Positions 2,675 to 38,132 of a stretch of 44,108 nucleotides of DNA are shown here, one piece after another (within the stretch, counting starts at the first letter, position 1; each line of letters starts with the position of its first letter). The stretch comes from a virus. The translations under genes and the position numbers were made by a program. The notes below the pieces were generated by a model. The model saw only the letters and a program-made list of their open reading frames with translations, made no database searches and was not told where the DNA came from. The DNA lies in UHGV virus genome UHGV-0106768. The stretch is one strand, 5' to 3'.

Positions 2675-3397
2675 ATGGAAAACGTGAATGTTCAGAATGC
2701 TGCCGCTATTACCGATCAGACCACACTCGGAGAACTGCTTGCAATGCTTGACCTCGCTGATAAGGCAGGCAAGATGCCGACACCGAGAGAACTGTTTGAG
2801 ACCGCCGGTGAGACGATTGCCGACATGAACGGCTGCACGCTCTTCAGCAACGGGTTCGCTGTCTACCAGAATATCACCGGACGTACTGTTGTCTGGCTGC
2901 CTTACTGTAAGAGCTTCACCTATTACTTCGGCAAGCTCCGTGATTCCGAGAAAGACACGCTGACAGAGACCTATGAGCTGCCGGATGGATTTCTGGAAAC
3001 ACAGCCGTGGGTGATCGCAGTAACACTGATCGGCGACCATCGTGTGGAGGCAAACAGCATGAACCGCACCGGCAGCCGCAAGGATACCACAGATTATGAC
3101 AGCGCCGATAACGGCGATAAAGACGGTGATGCAGAGGAGGCTTTGGCAGATCCGTATCGCAGGGCATTCAACTGGTATGACGGACGCATGGGCGAGAATC
3201 CGCAGGATGCCGTGGAGCGCAGAGAGACACGCGAGGAGATGCTTGCAGACATGACGGACAAGCAGCGTGAAGCCTTTATTATGTACTTCAGGGATGGTAT
3301 GACGCAGGAAGAGATTGCTTCATATATAGGGGTAAGCCGTGATTCCATAAATGACAGGCTTGAAGGTGCATTGAAAAAAGCAAAAAAATATTTTTGA
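2675..3397 (+). CDS. sigma-70 region-4-like HTH protein (putative phage transcription factor)
   Basis: ATG 2675 with AAAGGA RBS (ORF track starts at in-frame GTG 2648); C-terminus (REAFIMYFRDGMTQEEIASYIGVSRDSINDRLEGALKKA) resembles sigma region 4; no region 2 recognised. Confidence 0.5.
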   Translation: MENVNVQNAAAITDQTTLGELLAMLDLADKAGKMPTPRELFETAGETIADMNGCTLFSNGFAVYQNITGRTVVWLPYCKSFTYYFGKLRDSEKDTLTETYELPDGFLETQPWVIAVTLIGDHRVEANSMNRTGSRKDTTDYDSADNGDKDGDAEEALADPYRRAFNWYDGRMGENPQDAVERRETREEMLADMTDKQREAFIMYFRDGMTQEEIASYIGVSRDSINDRLEGALKKAKKYF

Positions 3398-3442
3398 GGA
3401 TACCCACAAAAAGACCTCTCCCATGACAGTATATGAGAGGGC
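3398..3442. repeat. conserved ~45-bp element, copy 1 (GGATACCCACAAAA...hairpin)
   Basis: Near-identical to 17237..17280; CCTCTC/GAGAGG stem; lies immediately 3' of a stop codon after a T-run. Confidence 0.6.
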
Positions 3443-3529
3443 TTGAAAAGAAACCAAACCGCAAGCGGCTGCAAAGCCCTCGCAGCCGAACCATTATTAC
3501 ATCGGTCGAAAGACCTGAACAGAAAGGAA

Positions 3530-3895
3530 ATGCTTATGCCTATGGAAAACAGAGTCCCGAAAAACCGCTACAACGGCGGTGCCGCGCCCAATGCTGACAA
3601 ACAGGACAAGCCCGATGTGCTGAAGATGATCGAAACGGCAATGGACAAGCGTGCGGCTGGCATAGCACAGACGGTCACGGATATGTTCCGTTTCATGTCG
3701 ATGGCATCCGCCATGCTCCCGAATATGGAGATGGATGTCGGTGTGTTCCGTCTGAAGATCGACGATGACGGCGTGTTCTTTGAAATCCGCTACCCGTCCG
3801 GCTTCAGGCGCAAGCACAAGCCCGATGAGGACGGCGAAAAGCTGCCGGACAACTATGACGATAACGAGGAGGGACTGATCTATGACGGAGACTGA
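3530..3895 (+). CDS. hypothetical protein
   Basis: ORF with AGAAAGGAAA RBS; alternative in-frame ATG at 3536; no recognisable motif. Confidence 0.5.
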   Translation: MLMPMENRVPKNRYNGGAAPNADKQDKPDVLKMIETAMDKRAAGIAQTVTDMFRFMSMASAMLPNMEMDVGVFRLKIDDDGVFFEIRYPSGFRRKHKPDEDGEKLPDNYDDNEEGLIYDGD

Positions 3896-4376
3896 GAAGA
3901 AGTTCACTGTGCCGGGACCGGTGCCTGTGGACGCAAAGAAGCTGATCGATGGGCTTGGTACGATCTTCGGCGGCGTGATCCAGATTCTGGCGGCAATGGA
4001 GCCGGGCATGGCAAAGGAACTGGCAGACATGGCGTTGGGCGGTGTGCCGAAGGAGCAGGTGCCGGAGACCATTAATCCGGACGATTTCGAGGAGATCATC
4101 GCTGCTGACGATCTGCCGTGGGATACAGAGCCGGAGCAGCCTGAACCGCCCAAGCCTGCGGAAAAATCCAAGCCGAAGAAGGCAGCAAAGAAGGCGGAGC
4201 CTGCATCGGAGCTGACCGCCGACGATCTCATCCGTGTGGTGACGCAGAAGATCAAGAAGGACCGCACCAACAAGGACAAAGTGCTGGCACTGCTGAAGTC
4301 CTACGGTGCGGCAAAGGTCAGCGACATTCCGCAGGAAAAGTATGAGGCGTTCCTCACGGATGTGTCGCAGCTCTGA
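3882..4376 (+). CDS. hypothetical protein (Pro/Lys/Glu-rich centre)
   Basis: 164-aa ORF overlapping the upstream stop by 14 nt; GAGGAGGG RBS. Confidence 0.55.
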   Translation: MTETEKKFTVPGPVPVDAKKLIDGLGTIFGGVIQILAAMEPGMAKELADMALGGVPKEQVPETINPDDFEEIIAADDLPWDTEPEQPEPPKPAEKSKPKKAAKKAEPASELTADDLIRVVTQKIKKDRTNKDKVLALLKSYGAAKVSDIPQEKYEAFLTDVSQL

Positions 4377-4390
4377 TCGGGGGTGGCATC

Positions 4391-5638
4391 ATGCCTGACG
4401 TTCACGCACTGCTCAGTGCGTCCAGTTCAAAACAGTGGCTACACTGTCCGCCGTCAGTCCGTTTGCAGGAGGGATTTCCGAATGAGAGTTCAGTCTACGC
4501 CGCAGAGGGCACGTTTGCCCACGAGATCTGCGAATACAAGGTACGTAAGTACCTGAAGGAGCGTGTGAAGCGTCCGCAGTCCGAGGAATATGACACCGAG
4601 GAAATCGAGCAGATCACAGATGTGTATGCGGAGTTCGTGATCTCCATCATTGAGCAGATGAAGGAGAACGGCTGTGAGCCGCTTGCTTTTGTTGAGGAGC
4701 GTGTGGACTACAGCCACATTGCCCCTTCCGGCTTTGGCACGGCAGATATGCTCATCATCGGTAAGGACGAGCAGGGACGCGGAATCCTTCATGTATGCGA
4801 TTTCAAGACGGGTGCAGGCGTGTTTGTGGATGCAGACCACAACAGCCAGATGATGCTCTATGCGATCGGAGCTTTAGCCGCCTACGGCTTTTTGTATGAT
4901 TTTGAGATCGTGCGTATGAGCATCATTCAGCCTCGTCTGGATAATATCAGCACATTCGAGTGTAGCAGAGCCGAGCTTGAGGAATGGGGCGAGAGCATCA
5001 AGCCCATTGCGAAACTTGCCTACGAGGGCAAAGGTGAACAGCACCCCGGCGACTGGTGTCGGTTCTGCCGTGCAAAGCCTGTTTGCAAAGCGTGTGCCAA
5101 TGAAGCACTGGCACTCTGCCGTGAGGATTTCCTTGACCTCGATGCCGGAGCATTCGATGATACTGCGGAGGAAAGCGATATGACCGCACCATACGAAGCG
5201 GATATACAGACTGCCGTATTCAAGCAGCCGTGACTGATTCCTATCAGCGAACTTGCGGAGATCCTGCCGACTCTGAACCGCATCAGCTCTTGGATCGAGG
5301 CGGTATTCGCATTCGTATCCTCCGAGGCGATCAATCACGGTGTACCGATTCCCGGCTATAAGGTGGTCGAAGGGCGCAGCAAGCGTGTATTCACAGATAC
5401 AAAAGCTGTGGTCGATACCGCTGTTCAGAACGGGTACACCGACCTTTACAAGCAGACGCTCATCACGCTGACGGAATTTGAAAAGATGATGGGCAAGAAA
5501 AAGTTCAACGAGCTGCTCGGTGAGTATGTCGCCAAGCCACCCGGAAAGCTGGCACTTGTGCCGGAGAGCGATCCGAGAGAACCCGTTGATCTCACAACAC
5601 CCGGTCAGGAATTTGAAGTTCTCTCTGATGATGAGTGA
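4391..5638 (+). CDS. DUF2800-like PD-(D/E)XK nuclease (Cas4/RecB-like), interrupted by in-frame TGA at 5231-5233
   Basis: N-terminal MPDVHALLSASSSKQWLHCPPS and C-terminal Cys cluster CRFCRAKPVCKAC are as expected for DUF2800; same-frame continuation through the stop reads as protein (ISELAEILPTLNRISSWIEAV...GYKVVEGRSKRVF); downstream part has no RBS or ATG. Confidence 0.7.
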
Positions 5639-5711
5639 GGATCATACAATAATGCCGCAATTATTCTGTTTGGTGAATACGCAAAATTGAATGAAATATA
5701 GGAGGTATACT

Positions 5712-6287
5712 ATGGCAAACACAACACCCGCGACTAAAGTGGTTATTCCCTGTCGCATTTCTTTTGCGAACATCTGGGAGCCAAAATCAATTAATGGCAG
5801 CGAAGAGAAGTATTCCGTTTCCCTACTGATCCCGAAGGATGACAAGGCAACGCTCGCCAAGATCAAGAAGGCAATTGAGGCGGCAAAGGAAGCGGCGAAG
5901 GAGAAGAAGTGGGGCGGCAAGATCCCGCCGAACCTCAAGCTGCCGATGCATGACGGCGACATCGACCGTCCTGATGACGAGAACTATGCCGGTCACTTCT
6001 TCTTCAATGCCACGAGCAAGGATGCACCGCAGATCGTTGACCGCCATGTGCAGCCGATTCTCGATCCGATGGAGTGCGGCAGCGGTGACTATTGCAATGT
6101 CAGCGTGAACTTCTACGGTTTTGCAGCATCCGGCAACAAGGGCATCGCAGCAGGACTCCAGAACATCCAGCTTGTCCGCCACGGTGAGCGTCTTGCCGGC
6201 AGGCCGACCGCCGCATCCGACTTCGTTGAGGTCGAGGGTGATGATGCGGATGATCTCGCAGACGATGATCTGGATTTCCTGAACTGA
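5712..6287 (+). CDS. DUF2815-like ssDNA-binding protein
   Basis: ATG 5712 with GGAGG RBS 6 nt upstream; sits in the DUF2800 - DUF2815 - PolA arrangement typical of this replication module. Confidence 0.65.
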   Translation: MANTTPATKVVIPCRISFANIWEPKSINGSEEKYSVSLLIPKDDKATLAKIKKAIEAAKEAAKEKKWGGKIPPNLKLPMHDGDIDRPDDENYAGHFFFNATSKDAPQIVDRHVQPILDPMECGSGDYCNVSVNFYGFAASGNKGIAAGLQNIQLVRHGERLAGRPTAASDFVEVEGDDADDLADDDLDFLN

Positions 6288-6327
6288 CGCATAAGGGAGG
6301 CTTGCCTCCCTGTACATACACAAACAG

Positions 6328-9213
6328 GTGGTGATTTTATTGAGCAGACGTGTACTTTCTATCGACCTTGAGACCTACAGCGATGTTGACCTTCCGAACT
6401 GCGGTGTGTACCGCTATGTTGAGGGGGATTTTCATATCCTGCTGTTCGCATATGCATTCGATGATGAAGAAACAAAGTGTATCGACATGGCCTGCGGTGA
6501 ACAGCTTCCCGCAGAGGTTGTGGATGCCATACACAATGAAAATATCATCAAATCTGCGTGGAATGCGCAGTTTGAGCGCATCTGTCTGTCAAAATATCTC
6601 GGCATCAGGCTTTCTCCGGACTCGTGGCAATGCACGATGGTATGGGCGGCATCGCTGTCCCTGCCGCTGAAGCTGGCAACGGCAGCACAGGCTTTGAAAA
6701 CTGCACAGCAGAAAGACAGTGTCGGTGAACGGCTGATCCGCTACTTTTCGATTCCGTGTAAGCCTACCAAATCTAACGGCGGTCGCACACGCAATCTGCC
6801 GGAACACGCTCCGGAGGACTGGGCGCTGTTCAAAAGCTACTGTATTCAGGATGTGGAAACGGAACGGGATATCCGCCGAAGACTTGAAAAGTTTCCGCTG
6901 ATGCCGCAGGAATGGGATTTTTATCACATGGATCAGCGGATCAATGACCGCGGCATCCTGATCGACAGAGAGCTTGTGCAGCAGGCAATTATCTGTAATA
7001 TGGCAATGTCTGAGGAGATGACCAAACGCGCCTATGCACTGACGGGACTTGAAAATCCCAATTCTGTATCTCAGCTGAAGTCATGGCTGGAAGATCGCGG
7101 CATCGAGGTGGATTCCCTCGGCAAAAAGAATGTCGCTTCTCTGATCACAGACCTTGACAAGCACAGTGCGGACGGTGAAGCTCTGGATATGATGAAGCTG
7201 CGGTTGCAGATGGCAAAGTCCTCTGTGAAAAAGTATCAGGCGGCAGAGAGATACATCTGTCAGGACGGCAGGGCGCACGGACTGTTTCAGTTTTCCGGAG
7301 CTCAGCGAACACAGCGCTGGTGTCTTACCGGCGATCATGAAATACTGACAGATAAAGGCTGGCTCAGGCTTGATAATTGGCAGGGCGGTAAGATTGCTTG
7401 TTGGAATCCTAATCAGGAAATGGTCTCGTTCCAGAAAGCGAACGTATTGTGCTTTGAATATGACGGTCCTATCTACCGCTATGAGGACAAACGGATCGAT
7501 CAGATCAGCACGCCGGATCACAAAATGCGTGTAAAGAAACGGTATAACGGCGAGTGGACGGATGACACTGTTGGCAATATGGAAAAGTATCGTCCTTCTA
7601 TTCCGTTTACCGGACGCAGACAAACGATGCCCGGCTTGGAGCACGCAGAACTGAGGGTACTGGTGATGACGCAGGCTGACGGCAGCTATAAAGAAGATGG
7701 AATGCTCTGCTTCCATTTCAAGAAGAAAAGGAAAATAGAACGGTGCAAACATCTGCTCAGACAGGCGGGCATTTATTTCACAGTGAATGAATGCAGGACA
7801 GATGGAACAACGCAGATCAAGATTCCTTCCCGTGAGCAGCCGATGTATCTAAGAATGTTTCATAACAAGACATTTGGAATGTGGCTTCTCGATGAAAGCC
7901 CGGATGTTTTCTTTGATGAGCTTCGGTATTGGGACGGATCGCAAAGCGCCAAAAACAGTATCCAATATACCACAACGAACAAAGTGAATGCCGATATTGT
8001 TCAGGCTTTTGCTCATACAAGTGGTCGCTGTGCAAAAATGAAACCGGTCATCCGGGATAAAGAACACCCGAATTGGAGCGATGCATACTATCTCGATATA
8101 TGGCTCACTCCGAAAAACTGTCATGAAATCAGAGTGAAGCCGACTATCTCGCAATTCAGCGGCAAAATATACTGTGCTGAAACCCCAACCGGATACTTCC
8201 TTGTAAGACGTAATGGTAAAGTGTGGGTAACAGGAAACAGCGGGCGCGGCATTCAATTACAGAACCTGCCGCAGAACCACATCTCTACCCTCGATGAAGC
8301 AAGAGAACTTGTCAAAATGGGCTGCTTTGACATGATCGAAGCACTGTACGGCAATACGCCGGATATCCTGTCACAGCTTATCCGCACGATGCTCATTCCG
8401 AAGGACGGCTGTGAATTTATCGTGGCAGACTTCTCCGCCATTGAAGCGAGAGTACTTGCGTGGCTTGCCGGAGAACAGTGGCGGCTCGATGCCTTCAAGC
8501 GTGGCGAGGATATTTACTGTGCATCCGCATCGCAAATGTTCGGTGTTCCGGTCGTGAAGCACGGCATCAACGGTGAACTGCGGCAGAAAGGCAAGGTCGC
8601 AGAATTGGCCTGCGGTTACGGCGGCGGTGCCGGTGCGCTGATCTCAATGGGCGCACTGGATATGGGACTGAAAGAGGACGAACTTCCCGACATCATTTCA
8701 AGCTGGCGCGACGCAAACCCGGAGATCGTGAAATTCTGGTATGCTGTGGAAAAAGCCGCGATTGAAACAGTCAAGGATCACAATGACAGATCGGTCGGCC
8801 GGATCGGATTTCAGTTTTCAGCAAATACACTGTGGATCGTTCTTCCGTCCGGACGCAGGCTTGCCTACATCAAACCGAGATTACAGCCGAACCGCTTCGG
8901 GCGTATGGCACTGACATTTGAGGGGCTTGGTGCAAACAACAAGTGGGTGCGCGGCGAAACCTATTCCGGCAAGCTGACAGAGAACATCACACAGGCAACT
9001 GCCCGTGATCTCCTTGCAGAAGCAATGCGCCGTATAGAACTTGCAGGGCTTGGAATCGTCGGGCATGTGCATGATGAGGTCATTCTCGAAGTGCCGAAAG
9101 GACAATACACGGTCGATGATGTATGCAGCATCATGAATCAGAATCCGAAATGGGCGGAGGACTTACCGTTGTCAAGTGCAGGATATACGGGTGCATGGTA
9201 CTACAAAGATTAA
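6328..9213 (+). CDS. family A DNA polymerase with 3'-5' exonuclease domain, intein-containing
   Basis: Exo I motif SIDLETYS; pol motif A IVADFSAIEAR, motif B RQKGKVAELACGYGGG, motif C VHDEVI; NLQNLP-like motif; start ambiguous (GTG 6328 or TTG 6340). Confidence 0.85.
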   Translation: MVILLSRRVLSIDLETYSDVDLPNCGVYRYVEGDFHILLFAYAFDDEETKCIDMACGEQLPAEVVDAIHNENIIKSAWNAQFERICLSKYLGIRLSPDSWQCTMVWAASLSLPLKLATAAQALKTAQQKDSVGERLIRYFSIPCKPTKSNGGRTRNLPEHAPEDWALFKSYCIQDVETERDIRRRLEKFPLMPQEWDFYHMDQRINDRGILIDRELVQQAIICNMAMSEEMTKRAYALTGLENPNSVSQLKSWLEDRGIEVDSLGKKNVASLITDLDKHSADGEALDMMKLRLQMAKSSVKKYQAAERYICQDGRAHGLFQFSGAQRTQRWCLTGDHEILTDKGWLRLDNWQGGKIACWNPNQEMVSFQKANVLCFEYDGPIYRYEDKRIDQISTPDHKMRVKKRYNGEWTDDTVGNMEKYRPSIPFTGRRQTMPGLEHAELRVLVMTQADGSYKEDGMLCFHFKKKRKIERCKHLLRQAGIYFTVNECRTDGTTQIKIPSREQPMYLRMFHNKTFGMWLLDESPDVFFDELRYWDGSQSAKNSIQYTTTNKVNADIVQAFAHTSGRCAKMKPVIRDKEHPNWSDAYYLDIWLTPKNCHEIRVKPTISQFSGKIYCAETPTGYFLVRRNGKVWVTGNSGRGIQLQNLPQNHISTLDEARELVKMGCFDMIEALYGNTPDILSQLIRTMLIPKDGCEFIVADFSAIEARVLAWLAGEQWRLDAFKRGEDIYCASASQMFGVPVVKHGINGELRQKGKVAELACGYGGGAGALISMGALDMGLKEDELPDIISSWRDANPEIVKFWYAVEKAAIETVKDHNDRSVGRIGFQFSANTLWIVLPSGRRLAYIKPRLQPNRFGRMALTFEGLGANNKWVRGETYSGKLTENITQATARDLLAEAMRRIELAGLGIVGHVHDEVILEVPKGQYTVDDVCSIMNQNPKWAEDLPLSSAGYTGAWYYKD
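7321..8238 (+). mobile_element. intein (306 aa) with LAGLIDADG homing-endonuclease domain inside the PolA gene
   Basis: Begins CLTGDHEILTDKGW (block A), TPDH block B, two LAGLIDADG-like motifs (VMTQADGSY, LRYWDGS), ends ...VWVTGN followed by Ser; removing it joins RTQRW to SGRGIQLQNLP, restoring the conserved TGR-S/NLQN region. Confidence 0.7.
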
Positions 9214-9247
9214 GTGTATAAACAATATTTCAGAGGAGGATATCTTT

Positions 9248-10297
9248 ATGAAACAAGGCAGATCATTACCGGAAGTGCTGACTGAGCTTCAGCGTCAGAA
9301 TGCGGCAAAGCAGGACTACATCGGTGCAGCGGAGGCTTTCCGTCTGGACGAGGACGGCAGCACATTCAATATTGGCACCGACCACAGCTTCGGCACCACG
9401 CAGCTTTTTCATCGTCAGGTGGCATCGGCGCTTGGCATTCCGGCGAAATACTACGATATGATGCAGAAACAGAAGCCCGATCTTCTGGCAGACAATGTGA
9501 ATGCATGGTTCAGTGACAAGGGCAGCAGCTACATGGTGCGTACCCTTGATTACGGCAGCGGACAGGTTGCGAGAGCCTTTCTGTCTGACCGTTACCGCCG
9601 TATCGATAACCTTGAAATTGCCTCGGCTGTTCTCCCGATTTTCGCCGGACAGGAAGGCATGGAGGTCATGAGCTGCGAGGTCACAGAGAATAAGCTGTAT
9701 CTGAAGATCGTCAATCACCGTCTGGAAATGGCGTGTGTCGGTGACCGTGTGCAGGCAGGTGTCATCATCTCCAATTCGGAGGTTGGACTCGGTGCTGTGT
9801 CTGTTCAGCCGCTTGTCTATACACTTGCCTGCACCAACGGCATGGTGGTCAACAGTATGGGCGAACGCCGTACCCATGTGGGCAGAGCTGCGAAGGCGCT
9901 GGAAGACAGCTTCAATATCTACACAGATGAAACCCTCGAAGCCGAAGATAAGGCATTCATGCTGAAGCTCCGTGATACCACAATGGCAGCAATTGAAGAG
10001 GCTCGTTTCGCACAGATCATCGGTGTGTTGGAGCAGAGCCACGGCGCAAAGATCACAGGACGTGTGCAGGATGTCATCGAACTGACCGGCAAGGCGTATG
10101 ACCTGAATCAGCCGGAACAGGACAGCATTCTGAACTATCTCATCAAGGGCGGCGATCTTTCCCTCTATGGTCTGAGCAATGCCATCACACGCGCTTCGCA
10201 GGATGTAGATTCCTACGACAGAGCCACTGCGTTAGAGGGCATCGGCTGGCAGGTGGCGACCATGCCTGCAAATCAGTGGAAGGAGATCAACGCATGA
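9248..10297 (+). CDS. DUF932-like phage/plasmid protein (tentative)
   Basis: ATG 9248 with GAGGAGGA RBS; 349 aa; family assignment from memory of motif pattern only. Confidence 0.45.
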   Translation: MKQGRSLPEVLTELQRQNAAKQDYIGAAEAFRLDEDGSTFNIGTDHSFGTTQLFHRQVASALGIPAKYYDMMQKQKPDLLADNVNAWFSDKGSSYMVRTLDYGSGQVARAFLSDRYRRIDNLEIASAVLPIFAGQEGMEVMSCEVTENKLYLKIVNHRLEMACVGDRVQAGVIISNSEVGLGAVSVQPLVYTLACTNGMVVNSMGERRTHVGRAAKALEDSFNIYTDETLEAEDKAFMLKLRDTTMAAIEEARFAQIIGVLEQSHGAKITGRVQDVIELTGKAYDLNQPEQDSILNYLIKGGDLSLYGLSNAITRASQDVDSYDRATALEGIGWQVATMPANQWKEINA

Positions 10298-10527
10298 GCA
10301 GAACCTGGAAAGACAGAAAAGGATATAAAACACGCAGAAAACGACACGGATATCCTGTGCCGGAAATCTGCAATTACACACGCGGCAGCTATGAAGATTA
10401 TGACCACAGCGATGAGGAACTGTATGTCGATGACCAGTGCTGCGAGAACTGCCGCTTTTGCGGATGTTGCCGTCATACACCGTTCCCGTCGGGCTGGTGC
10501 GAATACTGGAAGGACGGCACACATTGA
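10294..10527 (+). CDS. small Cys-rich hypothetical protein
   Basis: ATG overlaps the upstream stop (ATGA); GGAAGGAG RBS; CCENCRFCGCC cluster. Confidence 0.5.
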   Translation: MSRTWKDRKGYKTRRKRHGYPVPEICNYTRGSYEDYDHSDEELYVDDQCCENCRFCGCCRHTPFPSGWCEYWKDGTH

Positions 10528-10964
10528 GAGAATATGTTGTCGAAAACGAGTTTATCAAGGCGGTAAAAGCGGCAGGCGGTGTGGCATACAAGCTGACATC
10601 GCAGACCGCAAACGGACTGCCGGACAGACTCGTTCTGTTCCCGGCGGCAAAGACGATTTTCGTGGAGCTGAAAGCACCGGGGAAAATGATGCGACCGTTG
10701 CAGCGTAAAAGACGGTATCAGCTTATGAAACTCGGCTTTCCGGTGCTGTGCATTGACAGGATGCCGCAGATCAAGCCGTTCATATCAGCAGCATTGTCAT
10801 GGACACCCGGTGAGCCGTTCCCGGAAGGCATCGGTGCGAAGATACCCGATCTGGAAAGGGCAACGCTGCCGACGGATATGGATAACTTCGGGGAAACGCT
10901 TGAACCCATCGATCCAGACAATCTGATAGAGTTTTATGAAATAGAGGACGGTGATGATGCATGA
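10524..10964 (+). CDS. VRR-NUC domain nuclease
   Basis: GLPDRLVLFP...FVELKAPG...LQRKRRYQ pattern; probable TTG start at 10524 (ORF track gives overlapping ATG 10437). Confidence 0.6.
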   Translation: MREYVVENEFIKAVKAAGGVAYKLTSQTANGLPDRLVLFPAAKTIFVELKAPGKMMRPLQRKRRYQLMKLGFPVLCIDRMPQIKPFISAALSWTPGEPFPEGIGAKIPDLERATLPTDMDNFGETLEPIDPDNLIEFYEIEDGDDA

Positions 10965-11458
10965 TTAACCCTAAACGCAGAGCTGTGAGAAAAAGCTGCT
11001 CATACTGCGGAACTGTCTTTACCTATGTCGGAAGTCATGGTACAAGAAATAAGCATTTTTTCTGTTCTCATGAATGCTATATTGCCTTTAAGACAAAGAA
11101 AGCAGAAGTGAAATGCGATTGGTGCGGCAAATCAATGCTGAAAAAACGCTCTGAAATATGGAGAACGGATCACAATTTCTGCTGCCCCGAATGCTGTTTA
11201 CTGTATAGGCAAAAGCAAGGCGAAACTTCATGGAATCATCGTGTGAATGGAATAACCGTACACAGGGGCATTTTGGAGAAGAAGCTCGGACGAGAACTGC
11301 GTGCGGATGAAGAAGTACACCATATCGATGGTAACCATTTCAATAATGATCCGGACAATCTCATCGCCCTTTCCAAATCGGAACACGCCAAAATTCATTC
11401 TTCTTGGAAAGCGAGGGACGAGTATGGAAAATACGTTAAAACGCAGTCAGATTCATGA
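10961..11458 (+). CDS. HNH endonuclease (free-standing, homing-endonuclease-like)
   Basis: Cys-rich N-terminus plus HNH motif EVHHIDGNHFNNDPDNLIALSKSEHAKIH; overlaps both neighbours. Confidence 0.75.
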   Translation: MINPKRRAVRKSCSYCGTVFTYVGSHGTRNKHFFCSHECYIAFKTKKAEVKCDWCGKSMLKKRSEIWRTDHNFCCPECCLLYRQKQGETSWNHRVNGITVHRGILEKKLGRELRADEEVHHIDGNHFNNDPDNLIALSKSEHAKIHSSWKARDEYGKYVKTQSDS

Positions 11459-12806
11459 ATACCAAAAATACTGTGTTGACTTTATTAAGTCTCATCCCGT
11501 ATCAGCACTCTTTTTGGATTGCGGACTTGGAAAGACGATCATTTCATTGACTGCAATATATGATCTAATGTTTGATGAGCTGAAGGTATTTAAAGTTCTT
11601 GTAATTGCCCCTCTAAGAGTGACAAATGTCTGGAAAGCGGAGGTTCAGAAATGGAGTCATCTGCAAGATGTTGATGTTGCGATAGTAGTCGGAACTGTAA
11701 AACAGCGGATTGCTGCGATTAACAGTAACGCTCTTGTTTACGCTGTCAACCGTGAAAATGTGAAGTGGCTCGTAGAGTATTACGAGAAAAACGGTCTTCG
11801 TTGGGATTTTGACATGATTGTCATTGACGAGCTGAGTTCCTTCAAAAACTACCAGTCACAGCGGTTCAAATGGTTGCGTAAGGTTCGGCCTTTCGTGAAG
11901 CGCTGGGTAGGCTTGACAGGTACGCCGACTTCCAACGGACTCATGGACTTATGGGCAGAGATCGGTATCCTTGACGGCGGTGAGAGGCTTGGACGATTTA
12001 TCGGGCGTTTCCGAGAGTCTTACTTCAAGCCTGCATCCATGAACCCAAGTACGGGTGTGGTGTTCTCATATACACCCCGTCCCGGTGCGGAGGAACAGAT
12101 ATATCAGAAGATCTCCGACATCACCATTTCTATGAAAGCACTGGACTATCTGGATATGCCTGAATGCGTGTATGTCAATCATGAGGTCGAGATGAATGCA
12201 GCGGAGCGAAAGCTCTACGATCAGTTGAAGCACGACCTCATTATCCCGCTTGAGGACGGCGACATTGATGCCGCCAACGCTGCATCGCTTTCCAATAAAC
12301 TGCTCCAGATGGCGAACGGCGCGGTCTATGATGAGAACAAGGAAACACGCACCATTCACAGCCGCAAGCTGGAGATGCTGGAAGACCTGATCGAATCGGC
12401 AAACGGACAACCTGTGCTGATCGGTTACTGGTTCAAGCATGACCGCACCCGAATTATAGAGCATCTGACCGCTTGTGGTTATGCTCCGAGGGATATTAAG
12501 GATTCCGACGATATCACTGACTGGAACGCCGGAAAGATCAGTGTTGCTCTGATACATCCGGCTTCGGCAGGACACGGACTGAATATCCAGTCCGGCGGTC
12601 ATATCCTGATCTGGTTTGGCCTGACATGGAGTCTGGAGCTGTATCAGCAGACCAATGCAAGACTCTGGCGGCAGGGGCAGCAGCACACTGTTACTATCCA
12701 TCACATCGTAACAAAAGACACAGTAGATGAAGATGTCCTGAAAGCTCTCGCTTCAAAGGACGTGACGCAGGAGAAGCTGATCGCAGCAGTCAAGGCAAGA
12801 TTGTAA
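11424..12806 (+). CDS. SNF2-family helicase
   Basis: Walker A-like LDCGLGKT, DEAD-like IVIDELSSFKN, motif III LTGTPTSNG, C-terminal helicase motifs; ATG 11424 with RBS. Confidence 0.8.
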   Translation: MENTLKRSQIHEYQKYCVDFIKSHPVSALFLDCGLGKTIISLTAIYDLMFDELKVFKVLVIAPLRVTNVWKAEVQKWSHLQDVDVAIVVGTVKQRIAAINSNALVYAVNRENVKWLVEYYEKNGLRWDFDMIVIDELSSFKNYQSQRFKWLRKVRPFVKRWVGLTGTPTSNGLMDLWAEIGILDGGERLGRFIGRFRESYFKPASMNPSTGVVFSYTPRPGAEEQIYQKISDITISMKALDYLDMPECVYVNHEVEMNAAERKLYDQLKHDLIIPLEDGDIDAANAASLSNKLLQMANGAVYDENKETRTIHSRKLEMLEDLIESANGQPVLIGYWFKHDRTRIIEHLTACGYAPRDIKDSDDITDWNAGKISVALIHPASAGHGLNIQSGGHILIWFGLTWSLELYQQTNARLWRQGQQHTVTIHHIVTKDTVDEDVLKALASKDVTQEKLIAAVKARL

Positions 12807-24352: not shown

Positions 24353-24594
24353 CGAAACAGGAATGTGCCATCGTGACAGCGTACACAGGGTTCGCTATGC
24401 TGAAGGGCAGCGACCTGAAATATCTGTACAATTATCTCTCCGGTCTCATCGGCAGGCCGGTGTATTCACACGAGATCCCTGCGGTCGCAGAAGCCTGCAA
24501 GGAACAAATACGAGAAGATTTCCTTGCCCTGTGCAGGAACGCAAAGGAGGCGGATGATGGATCATACAACAATGACGCTCGGCAGTCTGTTTGA
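24349..24594 (+). CDS. hypothetical small protein
   Basis: 81-aa ORF overlapping both MTase genes. Confidence 0.4.
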   Translation: MTKQECAIVTAYTGFAMLKGSDLKYLYNYLSGLIGRPVYSHEIPAVAEACKEQIREDFLALCRNAKEADDGSYNNDARQSV

Positions 24595-26848
24595 CGGCTC
24601 CGGGGGCTTTCCGCTTGGTGGCATCCTCGCAGGGATCGAGCCAAGGTGGAGCAGCGAAATTGAACCTTTTCCGGTGCTTGTCACGCACAAGCGGCTGCCG
24701 CAGGTGCAGCACTACGGTGATGTATCTACGCTGAACGGCGCAGAGCTTCCGCCGGTGGATATCATCACCTTAGGCAGTCCTTGTCAGGACCTGTCTATTG
24801 CGGGCAAGCGTGCCGGAATCCATGACGGTGATCGGTCGAACCTGTTCTTTCAGGCGATCCGCATCATCAAAGAAATGAGGGATGCAACAAATGGACGATA
24901 TCCGCGATACTGCGTCTGGGAAAATGTCCCCGGCGCTTTCTCATCCAACGGAGGAAACGACTTCAAGGCTGTCCTCGAAGCAGTTATCGGAGTTAAAGAA
25001 AAAGGGATCGAGGTGCCTGCGCCTGAAAATCACAGATGGGCAAAATCAGACGTATATCTGGGAGACGGATGGAGCGTGGCTTACCGAGTTTTCGATGCTC
25101 AATACTGGGGTGTCCCCCAACGCAGAGCAAGAATCTACCTTGTCGCAGATTTTGCTGGCGAAAGTGCCGGAGAAATACTATTTAAGTCCGAAGGCGTGTC
25201 TTGGTATACTCCGCAGGGCTTCCGTGCGTGGCAAGGAGCTGCCGGAGGTGCTGAAGAAGGCACTGGAGAAACAGGCGGGCGGTCTGACGCTGGAGGTGGA
25301 ACCCTCTGCCTGAATACACAGGGCAACAGCGGCGTCGGCATCACCGAGGACAAGGCTCTCGCACTGGTCGCACAGGATCACGGGAATCATCCTGCCGTTC
25401 TTGCCGCAGGTTTTTCCACAGAGCATAGTGCAAAAGCACGCAGCATCGGATACGAGGAGGAAGTCTCCCCGACACTGAGAGCAGGTGTTGTTCCTGCGGC
25501 ACTCTCGGTCGAAAACCATCCGACAGACGGTCGTGTGAAGATCCGTGAGGACGACACCTGCCAGACACTTTGCAGCAGAGCCGGGACGGGCGGCAACAAT
25601 GTACCGCTTGTCGCTGAACCGATCACGCTGAAAATCAGGTCAGGCTGCGAAGGCGGCGGCAAGGGCGCTCTCTGGCAAACTGATAAATCTGCTACGCTTG
25701 CTACCAACAACAACCAGACACTCTTTCAGCCAGAGATCAAAGCCTTCGGTGTATGTAGCAAGCATTCCAATGCGATGATGTCAGACAATCCGCACAGTGG
25801 CTTTTACGAAGCGACCACGAGCAGAACGCTTGACCAGAGCGGTGGAAACTCCGTAACATCGAATCAGGGCGGCATCTGCGTGGTAGCACCTGCGCCGGAG
25901 ACATTCGATGTGCGTTTCACATCGGACGGCACGAAAAATGCTCGTGGGCATTGTTACCCGACAGACATTTCCCGATGCCTTGATACGAGCGAGGGATCGC
26001 CAGACTCGAATCACGGCGGTGTCGCTGTGGTGGCTCTTGAACCGGGGGCTGCATCACGTGTCGGCGGTCATGTGTACAGTGACGGCAAAAGCGGTACGCT
26101 TCGAGCCAATGCCGGCGATAATCAGCAGGCTGTTGTGGTCGCCGAGCCGGAGACCTATGCTCTGCAAGGCTCGATGATCGGTCGTGCCGACAAGAACGGT
26201 CCGCAGGGTGACGGCATCAATGAGGATGTGTGCTTTACGCTCAATACTTCAGACAGGCACGCTATTGCCGCACCCGATCCGTCTTTCACGATTTCCCGTG
26301 ACAATCACTTCGCCGTTTCGGAAGATATATCTGTTACGGCAGTTGCGAGAGGTCCTGCAACGGTCGCAGCCCCGGCAGATCACTACTGCACAAGCAAGAA
26401 TTCACACCACACGGTCGCTGTGCATGAGCAGGCAAACACGCTGGTCGCATCCGACTGGAAGGATCCGCCGCTTGTGAACGACCTTCCGAATGACGAGCCG
26501 GTATATATCGTAAGAAGGCTGACTCCGGTGGAGTGCGCCAGATTGCAGGGATTCCCGGACTGGTGGTGTGCCGACCTTGCGATTCCTGATCCTTCTGACG
26601 AGGAGATCGCCTTCTGGATGGAAGTATGGGAAACTTGGAGACAGATCACAAATCCCAAGGGCAAACCGAAAACGGAAAAGCAGATCCGCAAATGGCTGGC
26701 TAATCCGTACACGGACAGTGCCGAGTACAAGTTATGGGGCAACGGTGTCTCAGAGCCCGTTGTGTTCTTCGTGCTATCCGGCATTGCCTGGGCGGCACAG
26801 AATTCTGAAACTAATGCAGCAAATTGTGAACATTCTGATACTATGTAA
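24557..26848 (+). CDS. DNA (cytosine-5) methyltransferase, unusually long, probably multispecific
   Basis: Motif I LFDGSGG, motif IV GSPCQDLS, motif VI ENVPG, C-terminal motif IX/X RRLTPVECARLQGFPDWW; ~450-aa variable region between catalytic and C-terminal motifs. Confidence 0.85.
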   Translation: MDHTTMTLGSLFDGSGGFPLGGILAGIEPRWSSEIEPFPVLVTHKRLPQVQHYGDVSTLNGAELPPVDIITLGSPCQDLSIAGKRAGIHDGDRSNLFFQAIRIIKEMRDATNGRYPRYCVWENVPGAFSSNGGNDFKAVLEAVIGVKEKGIEVPAPENHRWAKSDVYLGDGWSVAYRVFDAQYWGVPQRRARIYLVADFAGESAGEILFKSEGVSWYTPQGFRAWQGAAGGAEEGTGETGGRSDAGGGTLCLNTQGNSGVGITEDKALALVAQDHGNHPAVLAAGFSTEHSAKARSIGYEEEVSPTLRAGVVPAALSVENHPTDGRVKIREDDTCQTLCSRAGTGGNNVPLVAEPITLKIRSGCEGGGKGALWQTDKSATLATNNNQTLFQPEIKAFGVCSKHSNAMMSDNPHSGFYEATTSRTLDQSGGNSVTSNQGGICVVAPAPETFDVRFTSDGTKNARGHCYPTDISRCLDTSEGSPDSNHGGVAVVALEPGAASRVGGHVYSDGKSGTLRANAGDNQQAVVVAEPETYALQGSMIGRADKNGPQGDGINEDVCFTLNTSDRHAIAAPDPSFTISRDNHFAVSEDISVTAVARGPATVAAPADHYCTSKNSHHTVAVHEQANTLVASDWKDPPLVNDLPNDEPVYIVRRLTPVECARLQGFPDWWCADLAIPDPSDEEIAFWMEVWETWRQITNPKGKPKTEKQIRKWLANPYTDSAEYKLWGNGVSEPVVFFVLSGIAWAAQNSETNAANCEHSDTM

Positions 26849-34992: not shown

Positions 34993-35466
34993 ATGGCTCA
35001 GAGAGGCAGAAAACCAACGCCTACGGCGATCAAAGAGCTGGAAGGCAATCCGGGCAAGCGTCCGCTGAATGATGCAGAGCCGAAGCCGGAACGCAAGGCA
35101 CCGCCCTGTCCGAAGTGGCTGGAGCCCGAAGCAAAAAAGGAATGGCGCAGGCTGTCAAAGCAACTGGAGCAGATTGGTGTGCTGACCGAGGTCGATCAGG
35201 CGGCATTCGCATCCTACTGTCAGGCATACGCACGATGGAAAGAAGCCGAGGAATTCATGACCCAGCACGGCACGATCGTAAAAACAAAATCAGGTTACTG
35301 GCAGCAGGTTCCGCAGGTATCCATTGCGCAAACTTATCTGAAGATCATGAACAAGATCGCAGAGCAGTTTGGCCTGACCCCGGCGGCAAGAAGCCGTATC
35401 ACTGCCGGCGCAGATATGAAAAACGCTGCCGTTGACGATATGGATGAACTTCTCGGAGGTGGCTGA
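34993..35466 (+). CDS. terminase small subunit (P27 family)
   Basis: GRKPTPTAIKELEGNPGKRPLN...AFASYCQAYARWKEAEEF...FGLTPAARSRI pattern; GGAAGGAG RBS; in-frame ATG also at 34987. Confidence 0.75.
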   Translation: MAQRGRKPTPTAIKELEGNPGKRPLNDAEPKPERKAPPCPKWLEPEAKKEWRRLSKQLEQIGVLTEVDQAAFASYCQAYARWKEAEEFMTQHGTIVKTKSGYWQQVPQVSIAQTYLKIMNKIAEQFGLTPAARSRITAGADMKNAAVDDMDELLGGG

Positions 35467-38132
35467 TGGCGAGAACGGCAAAGGCAAGAGAAAGACCTGC
35501 CAACTATCCGAAACTGAAGGATTATAAACCGACACGCTTTATGCTGCCGGAATCGCACTACGATGCGGCAAAGGCTGACCGAGCTGTGCGGTTCATCGAG
35601 AATCTCTGCCATACCAAAGGACGCTGGGCAGGCAAACCGTTCTGGCTGCTTCCGTGGCAGGAACAGATCATCCGGGATATTTTCGGCATCGTCAAAGAGG
35701 ACGATATGCGGCAATTTCGTACCGCCTATGTCGAAATTCCAAAGAAAAATGGGAAGCAGCTTGCACTGGATACACCGATCCCGACTCCGCAGGGATTCAC
35801 CAATATGGGAGATCTGAAGGTCGGAGATACAGTATTCGATGAAAACGGCATTCCGTGCCATGTGGTTGCGAAAAGTCCTGTGGATGATACAGAGCAAGCC
35901 TACAAGCTGACCTTCAAGGACGGCACCTCGATCATTGCCGGGGAAAGGCATCTGTGGAACTGTCAGTATATTTACGGCAAACGCAAGGATGTTCTCTGGA
36001 CGACCGGCGAGATCTATCGCAGGACAACGGAATACAGACAGCGTTTTTCCGACAGACCACAGACAAAGCGGGATTCCCTTATCCGAATTCCGGTGTGCGG
36101 TGTCCTTCAGACAGAAGCGGCAGTTTTACCGATTGATCCGTATCTGTACGGCTACTGGCTCGGAAACGGTAATGTGACCATGCCGGAGATCACTGTTCGG
36201 ACGGAGGATGTCGAGGATATCATCTCGAATATTCCGTATAAGGTACACAACCGTTATCCGCAGAAATGCGGCGGCAGTGAGATCATAAAGTACAATGAAC
36301 TGAAAGCAGTACTACTTGACAGCTTCCGTGAAAAGAAGATCCGACCAGAATATCTGAGGGCATCCGCAGAGCAGAGATGGGCATTACTGCAAGGGCTTAT
36401 GGATTCGGACGGCTGTATCGGTGAACGCAAAGGGCAAAGTGTGTATGTCACAACGCTGCGAGAGCTGGCGCTTTCCGTCAGAGAACTGCTGTGGTCACTC
36501 GGCATCAAAAATGCAGTGAAATGTGAGCCTTCTACACGGCATGGGTGGCCGACCGGCGAGATTTTGTATATCGTCCGTTTTACAACCTTTGATGACCAAC
36601 CGACATCAAGGCTTAAACGCAAAAATACACGCACACAGGCGCGGTTAAAGGAAACTCGCTCCTGTTTTCATTATCTGCTGGATATTCAACCTGTAAATCA
36701 TCCTGTAAAAATGCAGTGCATTCAGGTGGACAGTCCGAGTCACCAATATCTCGCAGGACCGTCATTTGTGCCTACGCACAACAGTGAGCTTGCAGCGGCA
36801 ATTGCACTGTATCTGCTCTACGCCGACAACGAGCCGTCTGCTGAGGTCTACGGCGCTGCTGCTGATCGTGGGCAGGCATCCATTGTATTCGATGTCGCCA
36901 AAAGAATGGTTGAGATGACACCGGCACTTCTGAAACGCTCAAAAATCATGGCGGCGACAAAGCGTCTGGTGAATTACAGTAATGTTGGCTTTTATCAGGT
37001 GCTTTCAGCGGAAGTCGGTACAAAGCACGGATTGAATGTATCCGGTCTGGTTTTGGATGAACTTCATGCCCAACCGAACCGCAGCCTTGTGGATGTTCTC
37101 ACAAAGGGTTCCGGTGATGCCCGTACTCAGCCGCTGTACTTCCTGATCACAACCGCCGGAACGGATCGCAACAGCATCTGCTACGAGTATCACACGAAAG
37201 CAAAAGATATTCTGGACGGCAGGCGCATTGATCCGTCCTTCTATCCTGTGATCTACGGCTTGAACGATGATGACGACTGGAACGCAGAGGAGTCATGGTA
37301 TAAGGCAAATCCCTCGCTCGGATACACTATCGCCATCGACCGAGTCCGCGATGCTCACCGGGAAGCCCTTACAAATCCCGCTGAAGAAAATGTATTCCGT
37401 CAGCTGAGGCTTGACCAGTGGGTAGGCAGTGCGGTGGCATGGATTCCGGAGCATATCTACGACAGGGGCAATCTTCCGATCGACCTCGAAAAGCTCCGGG
37501 GACGGGAGTGCTACGCAGGTCTTGACCTATCCAGCACATCGGATATCACGGCATTTGTGCTGGTGTTCCCTCCGCTGCATGACGGCGAGAAATACATCGT
37601 TGTCCCGCACTTCTGGCTGCCGAGAGAAACGCTCGATTTACGAGTACGGCGAGACCATGTTCCCTACGATGTATGGGAGCGCATGGGATTATTTCATATC
37701 ACCGAGGGCAATGTGGTCGATTACAATTTCGTGCGGAAAACGATCAACGAGCTGCACACGATGTACAACATCAAGGAAATTGCTGCCGACCGCTGGAATG
37801 CCACACAGCTTATCACAGACCTTGAGGGAGACGGATTTACCGTTGTTCCGATGGGCATGGGCTTCAAGGATATGTCCCCGCCGATGAAGGAACTGTACAA
37901 GCTCATACTCGAAGGGCAGTTTATCCACGGCGGCAACCCTGTACTCCGCTGGATGGCAGGAAATGTGGTCGCTGAAATTGATGCAGCGGAGAACATCAAA
38001 CCAAGTAAAAAGAAAAGTACAGAAAAGATTGACGGTATCGTGGCATGGATCATGGCACTTGACCGCTGCATCCGCCACGAAATGCAGGGCAGTGTCTATG
38101 ACGAACCCGGCCACGATCTTGTGGTCATCTGA
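35466..38132 (+). CDS. terminase large subunit, intein-containing
   Basis: Walker A KKNGK split from SELAAAIALYLLYAD by an insertion; downstream Walker B-like LVLDELHAQ, ITTAGTD, nuclease-domain motifs. Confidence 0.85.
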   Translation: MARTAKARERPANYPKLKDYKPTRFMLPESHYDAAKADRAVRFIENLCHTKGRWAGKPFWLLPWQEQIIRDIFGIVKEDDMRQFRTAYVEIPKKNGKQLALDTPIPTPQGFTNMGDLKVGDTVFDENGIPCHVVAKSPVDDTEQAYKLTFKDGTSIIAGERHLWNCQYIYGKRKDVLWTTGEIYRRTTEYRQRFSDRPQTKRDSLIRIPVCGVLQTEAAVLPIDPYLYGYWLGNGNVTMPEITVRTEDVEDIISNIPYKVHNRYPQKCGGSEIIKYNELKAVLLDSFREKKIRPEYLRASAEQRWALLQGLMDSDGCIGERKGQSVYVTTLRELALSVRELLWSLGIKNAVKCEPSTRHGWPTGEILYIVRFTTFDDQPTSRLKRKNTRTQARLKETRSCFHYLLDIQPVNHPVKMQCIQVDSPSHQYLAGPSFVPTHNSELAAAIALYLLYADNEPSAEVYGAAADRGQASIVFDVAKRMVEMTPALLKRSKIMAATKRLVNYSNVGFYQVLSAEVGTKHGLNVSGLVLDELHAQPNRSLVDVLTKGSGDARTQPLYFLITTAGTDRNSICYEYHTKAKDILDGRRIDPSFYPVIYGLNDDDDWNAEESWYKANPSLGYTIAIDRVRDAHREALTNPAEENVFRQLRLDQWVGSAVAWIPEHIYDRGNLPIDLEKLRGRECYAGLDLSSTSDITAFVLVFPPLHDGEKYIVVPHFWLPRETLDLRVRRDHVPYDVWERMGLFHITEGNVVDYNFVRKTINELHTMYNIKEIAADRWNATQLITDLEGDGFTVVPMGMGFKDMSPPMKELYKLILEGQFIHGGNPVLRWMAGNVVAEIDAAENIKPSKKKSTEKIDGIVAWIMALDRCIRHEMQGSVYDEPGHDLVVI
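35757..36782 (+). mobile_element. class-3-like intein (342 aa) with LAGLIDADG homing-endonuclease domain inside terL
   Basis: Starts QLALDTPIPTPQGF (Gln, not Cys/Ser/Thr); block B HLW; block F Cys (MQCIQVD); ends FVPTHN followed by Ser; LAGLIDADG-like LYGYWLGNGN and LLQGLMDSDG; excision restores EIPKKNGK-SELAAAIALY. Confidence 0.7.

Follow-up and report, generated by a model that had tools for sequence, protein, structure and literature searches.

A Cys1-bearing intein with Cys at F:4 and a C-terminal Gly-Asn in the family A DNA polymerase of the gut phage UHGV-0106768 belongs to a known but poorly annotated phage intein family

Two experimentally studied inteins stand close to the element described here, a 306-residue intein that interrupts the family A DNA polymerase (PolA) gene of UHGV-0106768, a phage-like stretch of 44,108 nt that is referred to below as the window and whose numbering is used for all positions. 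The first is the split AceL NrdHF intein (PDB 6ZGQ), which was described as an unusual class 3 intein with Ala at position 1 and an 'MCT' rather than a WCT triplet (PMC7891396, Hoffmann et al. 2020). Its block B reads S65-x-x-H68-R69-M70, followed by Cys124 at F:4, a P128-G129 kink and a C-terminal T144-G145-N146/S, where the slash marks a splice junction; both the block F His and the penultimate His are missing, and splicing proceeds with a half-time of about 3.8 min (PMC7891396). It was demonstrated that the Cys at F:4 is an obligate nucleophile, with the C124A and C124S mutants being dead, that T144A is ten-fold slower, and that G145H is dead because of a clash with Arg69, a residue that forms a hydrogen bond to the C-scissile carbonyl (PMC7891396).

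The second is the intein of the mycobacteriophage Bethlehem RDF (gp51 in the paper, gp52 phosphoesterase in GenBank), which splices to completion in a reporter and whose endonuclease is toxic in E. coli; changing its penultimate Gly to His (G316H) slowed splicing, so that about 50% required more than 5 h (PMC5050341, Kelley et al. 2016). The PolA intein of the window is homologous to it (blastp 5e-10; family profile 1.8e-23; about 23% identity), and the two share Cys1, a LAGLIDADG domain and a phage origin. The Bethlehem intein carries T-x-x-H-R-V in block B, VWC in block F, with its Cys at F:4, and LTGN/S at the C-terminus. However, its host protein is a metallophosphoesterase/RDF (GNHD/C) of an actinobacteriophage, whereas the PolA intein is found in a Firmicutes-associated gut phage.

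Homology of the PolA intein to 6ZGQ was also detectable, and AceL NrdHF is the closest characterised relative when sequence and structure are considered together. The counterparts of its functional residues in the PolA intein are K68-M69, C285, P289 with G291, and T304-G305-N306/S, and the spacing is nearly the same, with the block B His at 68 in AceL NrdHF and at 67 in the PolA intein, 22 and 21 residues, respectively, between Cys and Asn, and Pro four residues after Cys in both. On the other hand, AceL NrdHF has Ala1, is obligately class 3, resides in an RNR beta subunit and is split in nature, its halves being separated by a free-standing GIY-YIG gene, whereas the PolA intein has Cys1, one continuous open reading frame (ORF) and an internal LAGLIDADG domain. 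Two further groups are relevant to the comparison. Canonical class 3 inteins with the W-C-T triplet (MP-Be DnaB, Msm/Mch DnaB1 and a second intein in the window, in terL) share with the PolA intein the Cys at F:4, Thr at G:5, Ser or Thr at +1, phage association and a LAGLIDADG domain. Classical class 1 inteins with an endonuclease (PI-SceI, PI-PfuI, TliVMA) differ from it in having Asp or another non-Cys residue at F:4 and a C-terminal His-Asn, and are 8-15% identical to it.

The polymerase is encoded by the ORF at 6328-9213 (961 aa), located, as the other ORFs and the inteins given here with coordinates, on the plus strand. This ORF matches Pfam PF00476 (DNA_pol_A, E 1.5e-21) and several NCBIfam PolA models, including DpoZ/PolA N-terminal matches. 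It was verified by translation that the segment 7321..8238 is stop-free and in frame and encodes 306 residues, from Cys1 to Asn306, starting with CLTGDHEILTDKGW and ending with GKVWVTGN, after which come the +1 Ser (AGC, 8239..8241), the C-extein nucleophile, and GRGIQLQNLPQN; the length, position and VWVTGN-Ser ending proposed from the sequence alone were therefore right. The N-extein (6328..7320, ORF residues 1-331, ending ...GAQRTQRW) contains the DpoZ/PolA N-terminal matches and is collinear with intein-less alleles. The C-extein (8239..9213, beginning SGRGIQLQNLPQN) includes motif A, VADFSAIEARV, and the remaining palm and fingers, with the DNA_pol_A match on ORF residues 683-813. The flanks read ...GAQRTQRW, intein, SGRGIQLQNLP... 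Motif A lies about 55 residues past the junction, in a phmmer alignment to Taq Pol I residues about 590-678, which agrees with the placement just upstream of this motif that had been suggested earlier. Mapping the junction itself onto Klenow and Taq failed, as the alignment begins only about 44 residues downstream, near motif A; judged by eye from the Pol I motifs, RW/S is taken to be equivalent to TGRL/SS of Pol I. The guanine-plus-cytosine content of the intein is 0.459, against 0.514 and 0.530 for the exteins.

The boundaries were established with intein-less homologues. When the conceptually spliced extein of 655 aa was used as query and the best 120 matches were examined, 119 proved to be proteins of 650-669 aa at 94-98% identity, and the remaining one was an identical 961-aa protein (P0058), which represents 106 member sequences. 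All 119 shorter polymerases run uninterrupted across the site, 118 of them as RTQRW/AGRGIQLQN and one as RTQRW/AGHGIQLQN, and thus lack exactly the proposed insertion. The names of the sources of these empty alleles point to Oscillospiraceae and Ruminococcus metagenome-assembled genomes, with one relative coming from a human gut metagenome. At the DNA level, the empty allele of comparison locus L004 aligns to window positions 3301-7320 and 8242-12211, and 7321-8241 alone is replaced, by a single GCA (Ala) codon. Around the insertion point (caret), L004 reads GCAGCGATGG^GCAGGGCGTGG, and its empty site at about 3955-4015 reads ...GCAAACCGCACGCAGCGATGG^GCAGGGCGTGGTATTCAATTACAGAAT... Since one Ala codon takes the place of 7321-8241, the intein corresponds exactly to 7321-8238; and since Ser occupies +1 in the occupied allele and Ala the same place in the empty ones, the splicing nucleophile arrives together with the element. 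A megablast search of the polymerase gene against 50,697 phage records gave zero matches.

The segment 7321-8238 is therefore a genuine intein with exact boundaries in a phage PolA. The proposal that it is instead a native accessory domain of a polymerase lineage, to which many metagenomic PolA homologues carrying the segment at the same position might seem to point, is refuted by the empty alleles and retains a negligible probability: the segment is precisely absent from 119 of the 120 closest homologues, homologous segments occur in unrelated host proteins, it has a HINT and LAGLIDADG fold, and natural mini-versions without the middle domain exist. The comparison with homologous polymerases, in which the segment could have turned up as a native domain, thus came out in favour of an intein. 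The polymerase gene is intact, and its appropriate annotation is that of a PolA interrupted by an intein rather than that of a fused or aberrant polymerase.

The intein is composed of two splicing regions surrounding an endonuclease domain. The N-terminal splicing region (intein residues 1-101, 7321..7623) contains block A, with C1 (7321-7323), E7, L9, T10 and G13, of which C1 and E7 are conserved in 97% and 98% of the family described below, and the block B TPDH, with T64 (7510-7512), H67 (7519-7521), K68 at B:11 and M69 at B:12 (7525-7527). The C-terminal splicing region (residues 268-306, 8122..8238) contains the block F IYCAE, with Cys285 at F:4 (8173-8175), P289, G291 and R296 (8206-8208), and block G, with T304 at G:5, G305 at G:6 and N306 at G:7 (8230-8238); inspection of the sequence found no His between C285 and N306. 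The TxxH block B, the penultimate Gly and the block F Cys are thus present as quoted in the sequence-only reading. Between the two regions lies the LAGLIDADG homing endonuclease domain (residues 102-267, 7624..8121), supported by deletion in mini-inteins, conservation and fold. Its limits were set by two PolA homologues (P0033 and P0035), natural mini-inteins that lack exactly residues 102-267. The LAGLIDADG-like motifs noticed earlier are LVMTQADGS and ELRYWDGS, which hold the putative catalytic residues Asp120 (7678-7680) and Asp205 (7933-7935); two predicted LAGLIDADG helices end in these residues, which are conserved at 99% and 98%, and every endonuclease column conserved at 80% or more carries the consensus residue in this copy. 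An AlphaFold2 model built from 41 homologues (pLDDT 92.4, pTM 0.90) consists of a HINT splicing domain and a LAGLIDADG endonuclease, and its central domain matches the single-chain LAGLIDADG enzymes I-DmoI and I-Tsp061I.

Over their full length (100% coverage), the 306 residues can be aligned at 21-30% identity with inserts that lie in frame in other proteins of unrelated phages (341 phage records), with hosts including RtcB, RNR alpha and beta subunits, PhoH, DNA primase/TOPRIM, DNA methylases, NAMPT, thymidylate synthase and other polymerases. Additionally, a HMMER scan of 1.84 billion representative proteins recovered 6096 relatives at E<=1e-3, of which 155 at E<=1e-30; together with the precise absence of the segment from nearly all close polymerase homologues, this number goes far beyond chance. 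Column counts were made on 162 domains from the 150 best representatives, drawn from many host proteins. Cys1 is found in 97% of them, Thr at B:7 (Thr64) in 97%, His at B:10 (His67) in 100%, and Arg or Lys at B:11 (Lys68) in 70%, while B:12 (Met69) is Met, Ile, Val or Leu and never Trp. Cys at F:4 is present in all 162, Arg at the position of Arg296 in block F in 95%, Thr or Ser at G:5 in 84% and 12%, respectively, Gly at G:6 in 96%, Asn at G:7 in 97%, and Ser, Thr or Cys at +1 in 68%, 19% and 13%. Among 143 full-length domains, the C-terminus is TGN in 117 and SGN in 14, and in about 30 homologues at the PolA site, with 50-75% identity, the C-terminal junction VW[VI]TGN/SG[RK] and the block F [YF]-C show practically no variation. 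The family signature is therefore Cys1, T-x-x-H-[KR]-[M/aliphatic], Cys at F:4, Thr-Gly-Asn, and Ser or Thr at +1. Since Gly305 and Cys285 are near-invariant, their conservation identifies them as selected native features of a large phage intein family and not as lesions.

Cys1 itself is replaced by Pro in three relatives at the same PolA site (P0212, P0213 and P0215; GRW/P...TGN/[ST]GAG) and in one in another host protein (P0289), all of which retain the Cys at F:4, TGN, Ser or Thr at +1 and the endonuclease motifs. The mutual identity of the three PolA-site sequences is only 50-59%, which argues that the Cys1-less state has persisted since the loss. These four are candidate natural class-3-type inteins without Trp at B:12.

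The comparison of alleles also bears on how the intein reached its present site. Relative to the empty allele L004, identity upstream is 79-93% within 500 nt of the site and 96-100% at 500-800 nt, while downstream it is 86-95% within 500 nt and about 100% from 500 to 1900 nt; the low-identity zone thus spans roughly 300-500 nt on each side of the insertion. Relative to a diverged occupied allele, L009, the N-extein shows a proportion of synonymous differences (pS) of 0.56 and a nucleotide identity of 70-87%, whereas the final 120-150 nt before the site are 90-97% identical and the intein is 97-100% identical, with pS of 0.05-0.09. The identity patterns against L004 and L009 are the reverse of each other. 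Taken together, they point to a recent entry of the intein into this phage backbone, through gene conversion with a diverged donor that also brought in flanking extein sequence. Approximate co-conversion tracts of extein DNA imported with the intein were placed at 6820..7320 upstream, from the profiles against L004 and L009, and at 8242..8740 downstream, from that against L004. The intein is far younger than its host gene, and the clear footprint on both sides of the site would be a textbook case of an intein that homed recently between gut phages. Further patches of low identity to L004 were seen at window positions about 5300-6500, with 73-75% in 100-nt bins around 800 and 1500 nt upstream of the site, which suggests other mosaic recombination in the region of the single-stranded DNA-binding and nuclease genes.

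The ratio of nonsynonymous to synonymous proportions (pN/pS) of the intein parts against more distant copies is 0.13-0.36, similar to that of the exteins; raw values were used, as Jukes-Cantor-corrected dN/dS was saturated for distant pairs. Given these extein-like ratios, the splicing regions and the endonuclease region are alike under purifying selection. This bears on the earlier suggestion that Gly-Asn and the block F Cys could be inactivating, and on the rival reading in which the loss of the penultimate His and of the Asp at F:4 would cripple splicing and turn the polymerase into a pseudogene or leave it dependent on slow conditional splicing. Both His residues that usually assist Asn cyclisation, the penultimate one and that of block F, are indeed absent, and standard intein hidden Markov models do not match. 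However, the same residues are near-invariant among relatives, the ORF is intact and under the selection just described, the exact 961-aa protein recurs among many member sequences, and the homing footprint is fresh. Moreover, two homologues with the same residues splice efficiently, and faster with their Gly than their own mutants with His at that position (PMC5050341, PMC7891396). A decaying or impaired intein is therefore very improbable, and the inactivating interpretation was not sustained.

From this evidence we infer that the element is a functional, mobile, bifunctional intein, competent both in splicing and in endonuclease activity. The endonuclease would cut intein-less polA alleles, and during repair the intein would be copied in along with donor DNA from its flanks, about 300-500 nt, which includes the change from Ala to Ser that provides the +1 nucleophile. 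After translation, the intein would excise itself and restore the polymerase.

Regarding its splicing chemistry, class 3 inteins were reportedly defined by Tori et al. in 2010 by the absence of Cys, Ser or Thr at position 1, Trp at B:12, Cys at F:4, Thr at G:5, and Ser or Thr at +1. The PolA intein agrees with this definition in C285, T304 and S307 (87% of the family has Ser or Thr at +1), and departs from it twice, in the presence of Cys1 and in having Met69 rather than Trp at B:12; for these two reasons it was not filed as class 3. In later work, the N-terminal nucleophile is called merely 'not required' in class 3 (PMC5222942). The usual assisting residues of class 1 (Asp at F:4, His at F:13, His at G:6) are missing from the PolA intein, which has instead the features of the AceL type, namely a basic B:11, Met or an aliphatic residue at B:12, Cys at F:4, Thr-Gly-Asn, and neither block F nor penultimate His. 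By its residues, it is classified as a Cys1-bearing member of an AceL/Bethlehem-RDF-type family, distinct from canonical W-C-T class 3. The previously proposed atypical chemistry was thus a fair description, except that the type is a known one and that its class 3 signature of Cys at F:4, Thr at G:5 and Ser at +1 had been overlooked.

By analogy with AceL NrdHF, Cys285 probably participates covalently, as a branch point, although this is favoured only slightly over the contrary. The N-extein would reach Cys285 from a Cys1 thioester or straight from the scissile peptide bond, and would then be handed on to Ser+1. Asn306 would cyclise without any His, probably aided by the basic Lys68 at B:11, the equivalent of AceL Arg69, and perhaps by the conserved Arg296, while Gly305 would be sterically needed. 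This role is suggested by the invariance of the F:4 Cys, which exceeds that of Cys1, by the class-3-type Thr at G:5 and Ser or Thr at +1, and by the Pro1 family members, which keep every other catalytic and endonuclease residue.

Splicing could alternatively follow a strict canonical class 1 pathway, in which the linear thioester at Cys1 is attacked directly by Ser+1, Cys285 is a non-covalent helper and Gly305 tunes the rate. This pathway is a serious possibility, although held to be less than evenly likely. The block B is of the class 1 type, TxxH, with Thr at B:7 in 97% of the family, B:12 is Met or aliphatic as in class 1 and not Trp (PMC7891396), and Cys is the second commonest F:4 residue among inteins overall (PMC4031507). 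Against it stand the stricter conservation of the F:4 Cys relative to Cys1, the class 3 traits at G:5 and +1, the obligate nucleophilic use of the F:4 Cys by the closest characterised relative, and two or more losses of Cys1 among family members that kept all the other residues.

Several observations weigh against a functional, mobile intein using Cys285 covalently. The 97% conservation of Cys1 argues for its importance and leaves room for an ordinary class 1 start. The homologous Bethlehem RDF intein was filed and treated as class 1 by Kelley et al., on sequence grounds and with no C1A mutant reported (PMC5050341). The co-conversion pattern could in principle reflect ordinary phage mosaic recombination centred by chance on the site. 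Additionally, in Pfam and NCBIfam scans of the 306 residues, the intein models gave no match at E<=1, and Pfam LAGLIDADG_3 remained below threshold (13.9 bits against a cut-off of 22.5; E 0.068); because standard profiles miss the segment, the LAGLIDADG assignment rests on motifs, predicted fold and family conservation. The intein profile search proposed as a check in the sequence-only reading was thus negative with these libraries, but the family profile matches 7321-7626 with an E of 5.9e-34, and the missed curated profiles represent a sensitivity gap of the libraries and not a defining property of the intein. A family profile was also needed for the search of the PDB: with phmmer and the single sequence as query, the matches there were limited to the Spl DnaX mini-intein, weakly and over block A, and to Pol theta, spuriously, and phmmer of the C-terminal 45 residues against the PDB, intended to align blocks F and G with 6ZGQ, returned only chance matches to TATA-binding-protein repeats.

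The PolA intein is thus a new, ordinary member of a known, experimentally validated and poorly annotated phage intein family, neither broken nor exotic, and current concepts are unchanged by it. Its unusual feature is the coexistence of Cys1 and a class-3-type Cys. More tentatively, and with less than even confidence, it could be a two-cysteine hybrid, in which Cys285 and not Cys1 would be the real or alternative initiating nucleophile despite the presence of Cys1. If so, the Cys1/M-C-T/Gly-Asn family would be a reservoir repeatedly yielding class-3-type inteins, such as AceL with Ala1, the PolA-site P0212, P0213 and P0215 with Pro1, and P0289, and such origins, independent of the W-C-T clade, would contradict the view that class 3 arose once. 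As a natural Cys1-bearing, endonuclease-containing counterpart of AceL NrdHF, found in the same genome as a W-C-T class 3 intein and with Pro1 relatives at the identical site, it provides a comparative set for the interconversion of class 1 and class 3 chemistry and for His-free Asn cyclisation.

Since Pfam and NCBIfam intein models miss it, the family has probably gone unannotated in much of the phage and metagenome data; most database relatives bear no Pfam annotation over the intein part. A member (C...VYC...VCGN, profile 2.6e-32) is carried by the annotated 1132-aa 'DNA-directed DNA polymerase' of Escherichia phage Mangalyan (L003, OR449013.1); after this gene come one for an HNH homing endonuclease and a fragment called separately as 'DNA polymerase A'. 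The succession of an intein, an HNH gene and a separate polymerase fragment suggests that this polymerase gene was invaded more than once.

Among metagenomic homologues of the intein-bearing PolA, the majority are 'half' proteins that start or stop inside the intein because the contig ends there; L008 and L009 end or degrade within it, loci of this kind also include L005 and L006, and the break falls at an identical position in two independent assemblies. These 'half' ORFs had suggested a split intein, a frameshift or the recoding of a stop codon, an idea that was rejected because the examples checked (P0019, in two assemblies) stop where their contigs do, at assembly breaks. Metagenomic assemblies seem to be fragmented by the intein or by its presence/absence polymorphism.

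The second intein, whose presence in terL had been noted earlier and was borne out, comprises 342 residues (35757-36782) in the Walker A loop of TerL, within the terL ORF at 35466-38132. It reads KKNGK/QLALD...ERHLW...MQCIQV...VPTHN/SELAAA, with Gln1, which is no nucleophile, Trp at B:12 (ERHLW), Cys at F:4 (MQC), Thr-His-Asn and Ser at +1, and contains a LAGLIDADG_3 domain (Pfam E 1.4e-6). Judging from these residues, it is a textbook canonical class 3 (W-C-T) intein. No similarity between the PolA and terL inteins was detectable, the PolA-family profile scoring 0.2 on the latter.

The remainder of the window is phage-like, with genes for a PDDEXK/DUF2800 protein, a single-stranded DNA-binding protein, PolA, a DUF932 protein, an HNH endonuclease, an SNF2 helicase, a D5-type primase-helicase, NrdD, two DNA methylases, TerL and portal. 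In the C-5 cytosine DNA methylase ORF at 24524-26848 (774 aa), the Pfam match falls into three stretches, split by a long middle region rich in Gly, Ser, Ala and Thr, which gave neither a HINT nor an endonuclease signal and is not intein-like. Between the DUF932 gene and the SNF2 helicase, a free-standing ORF of 165 aa at 10961-11458 carries an HNH motif (EVHHIDGNHFNNDPDNLIALSKSEHAKIH), and the syntenic gene of L004 was called PF13392 HNH_3; this ORF is probably another homing-type endonuclease in the replication module.

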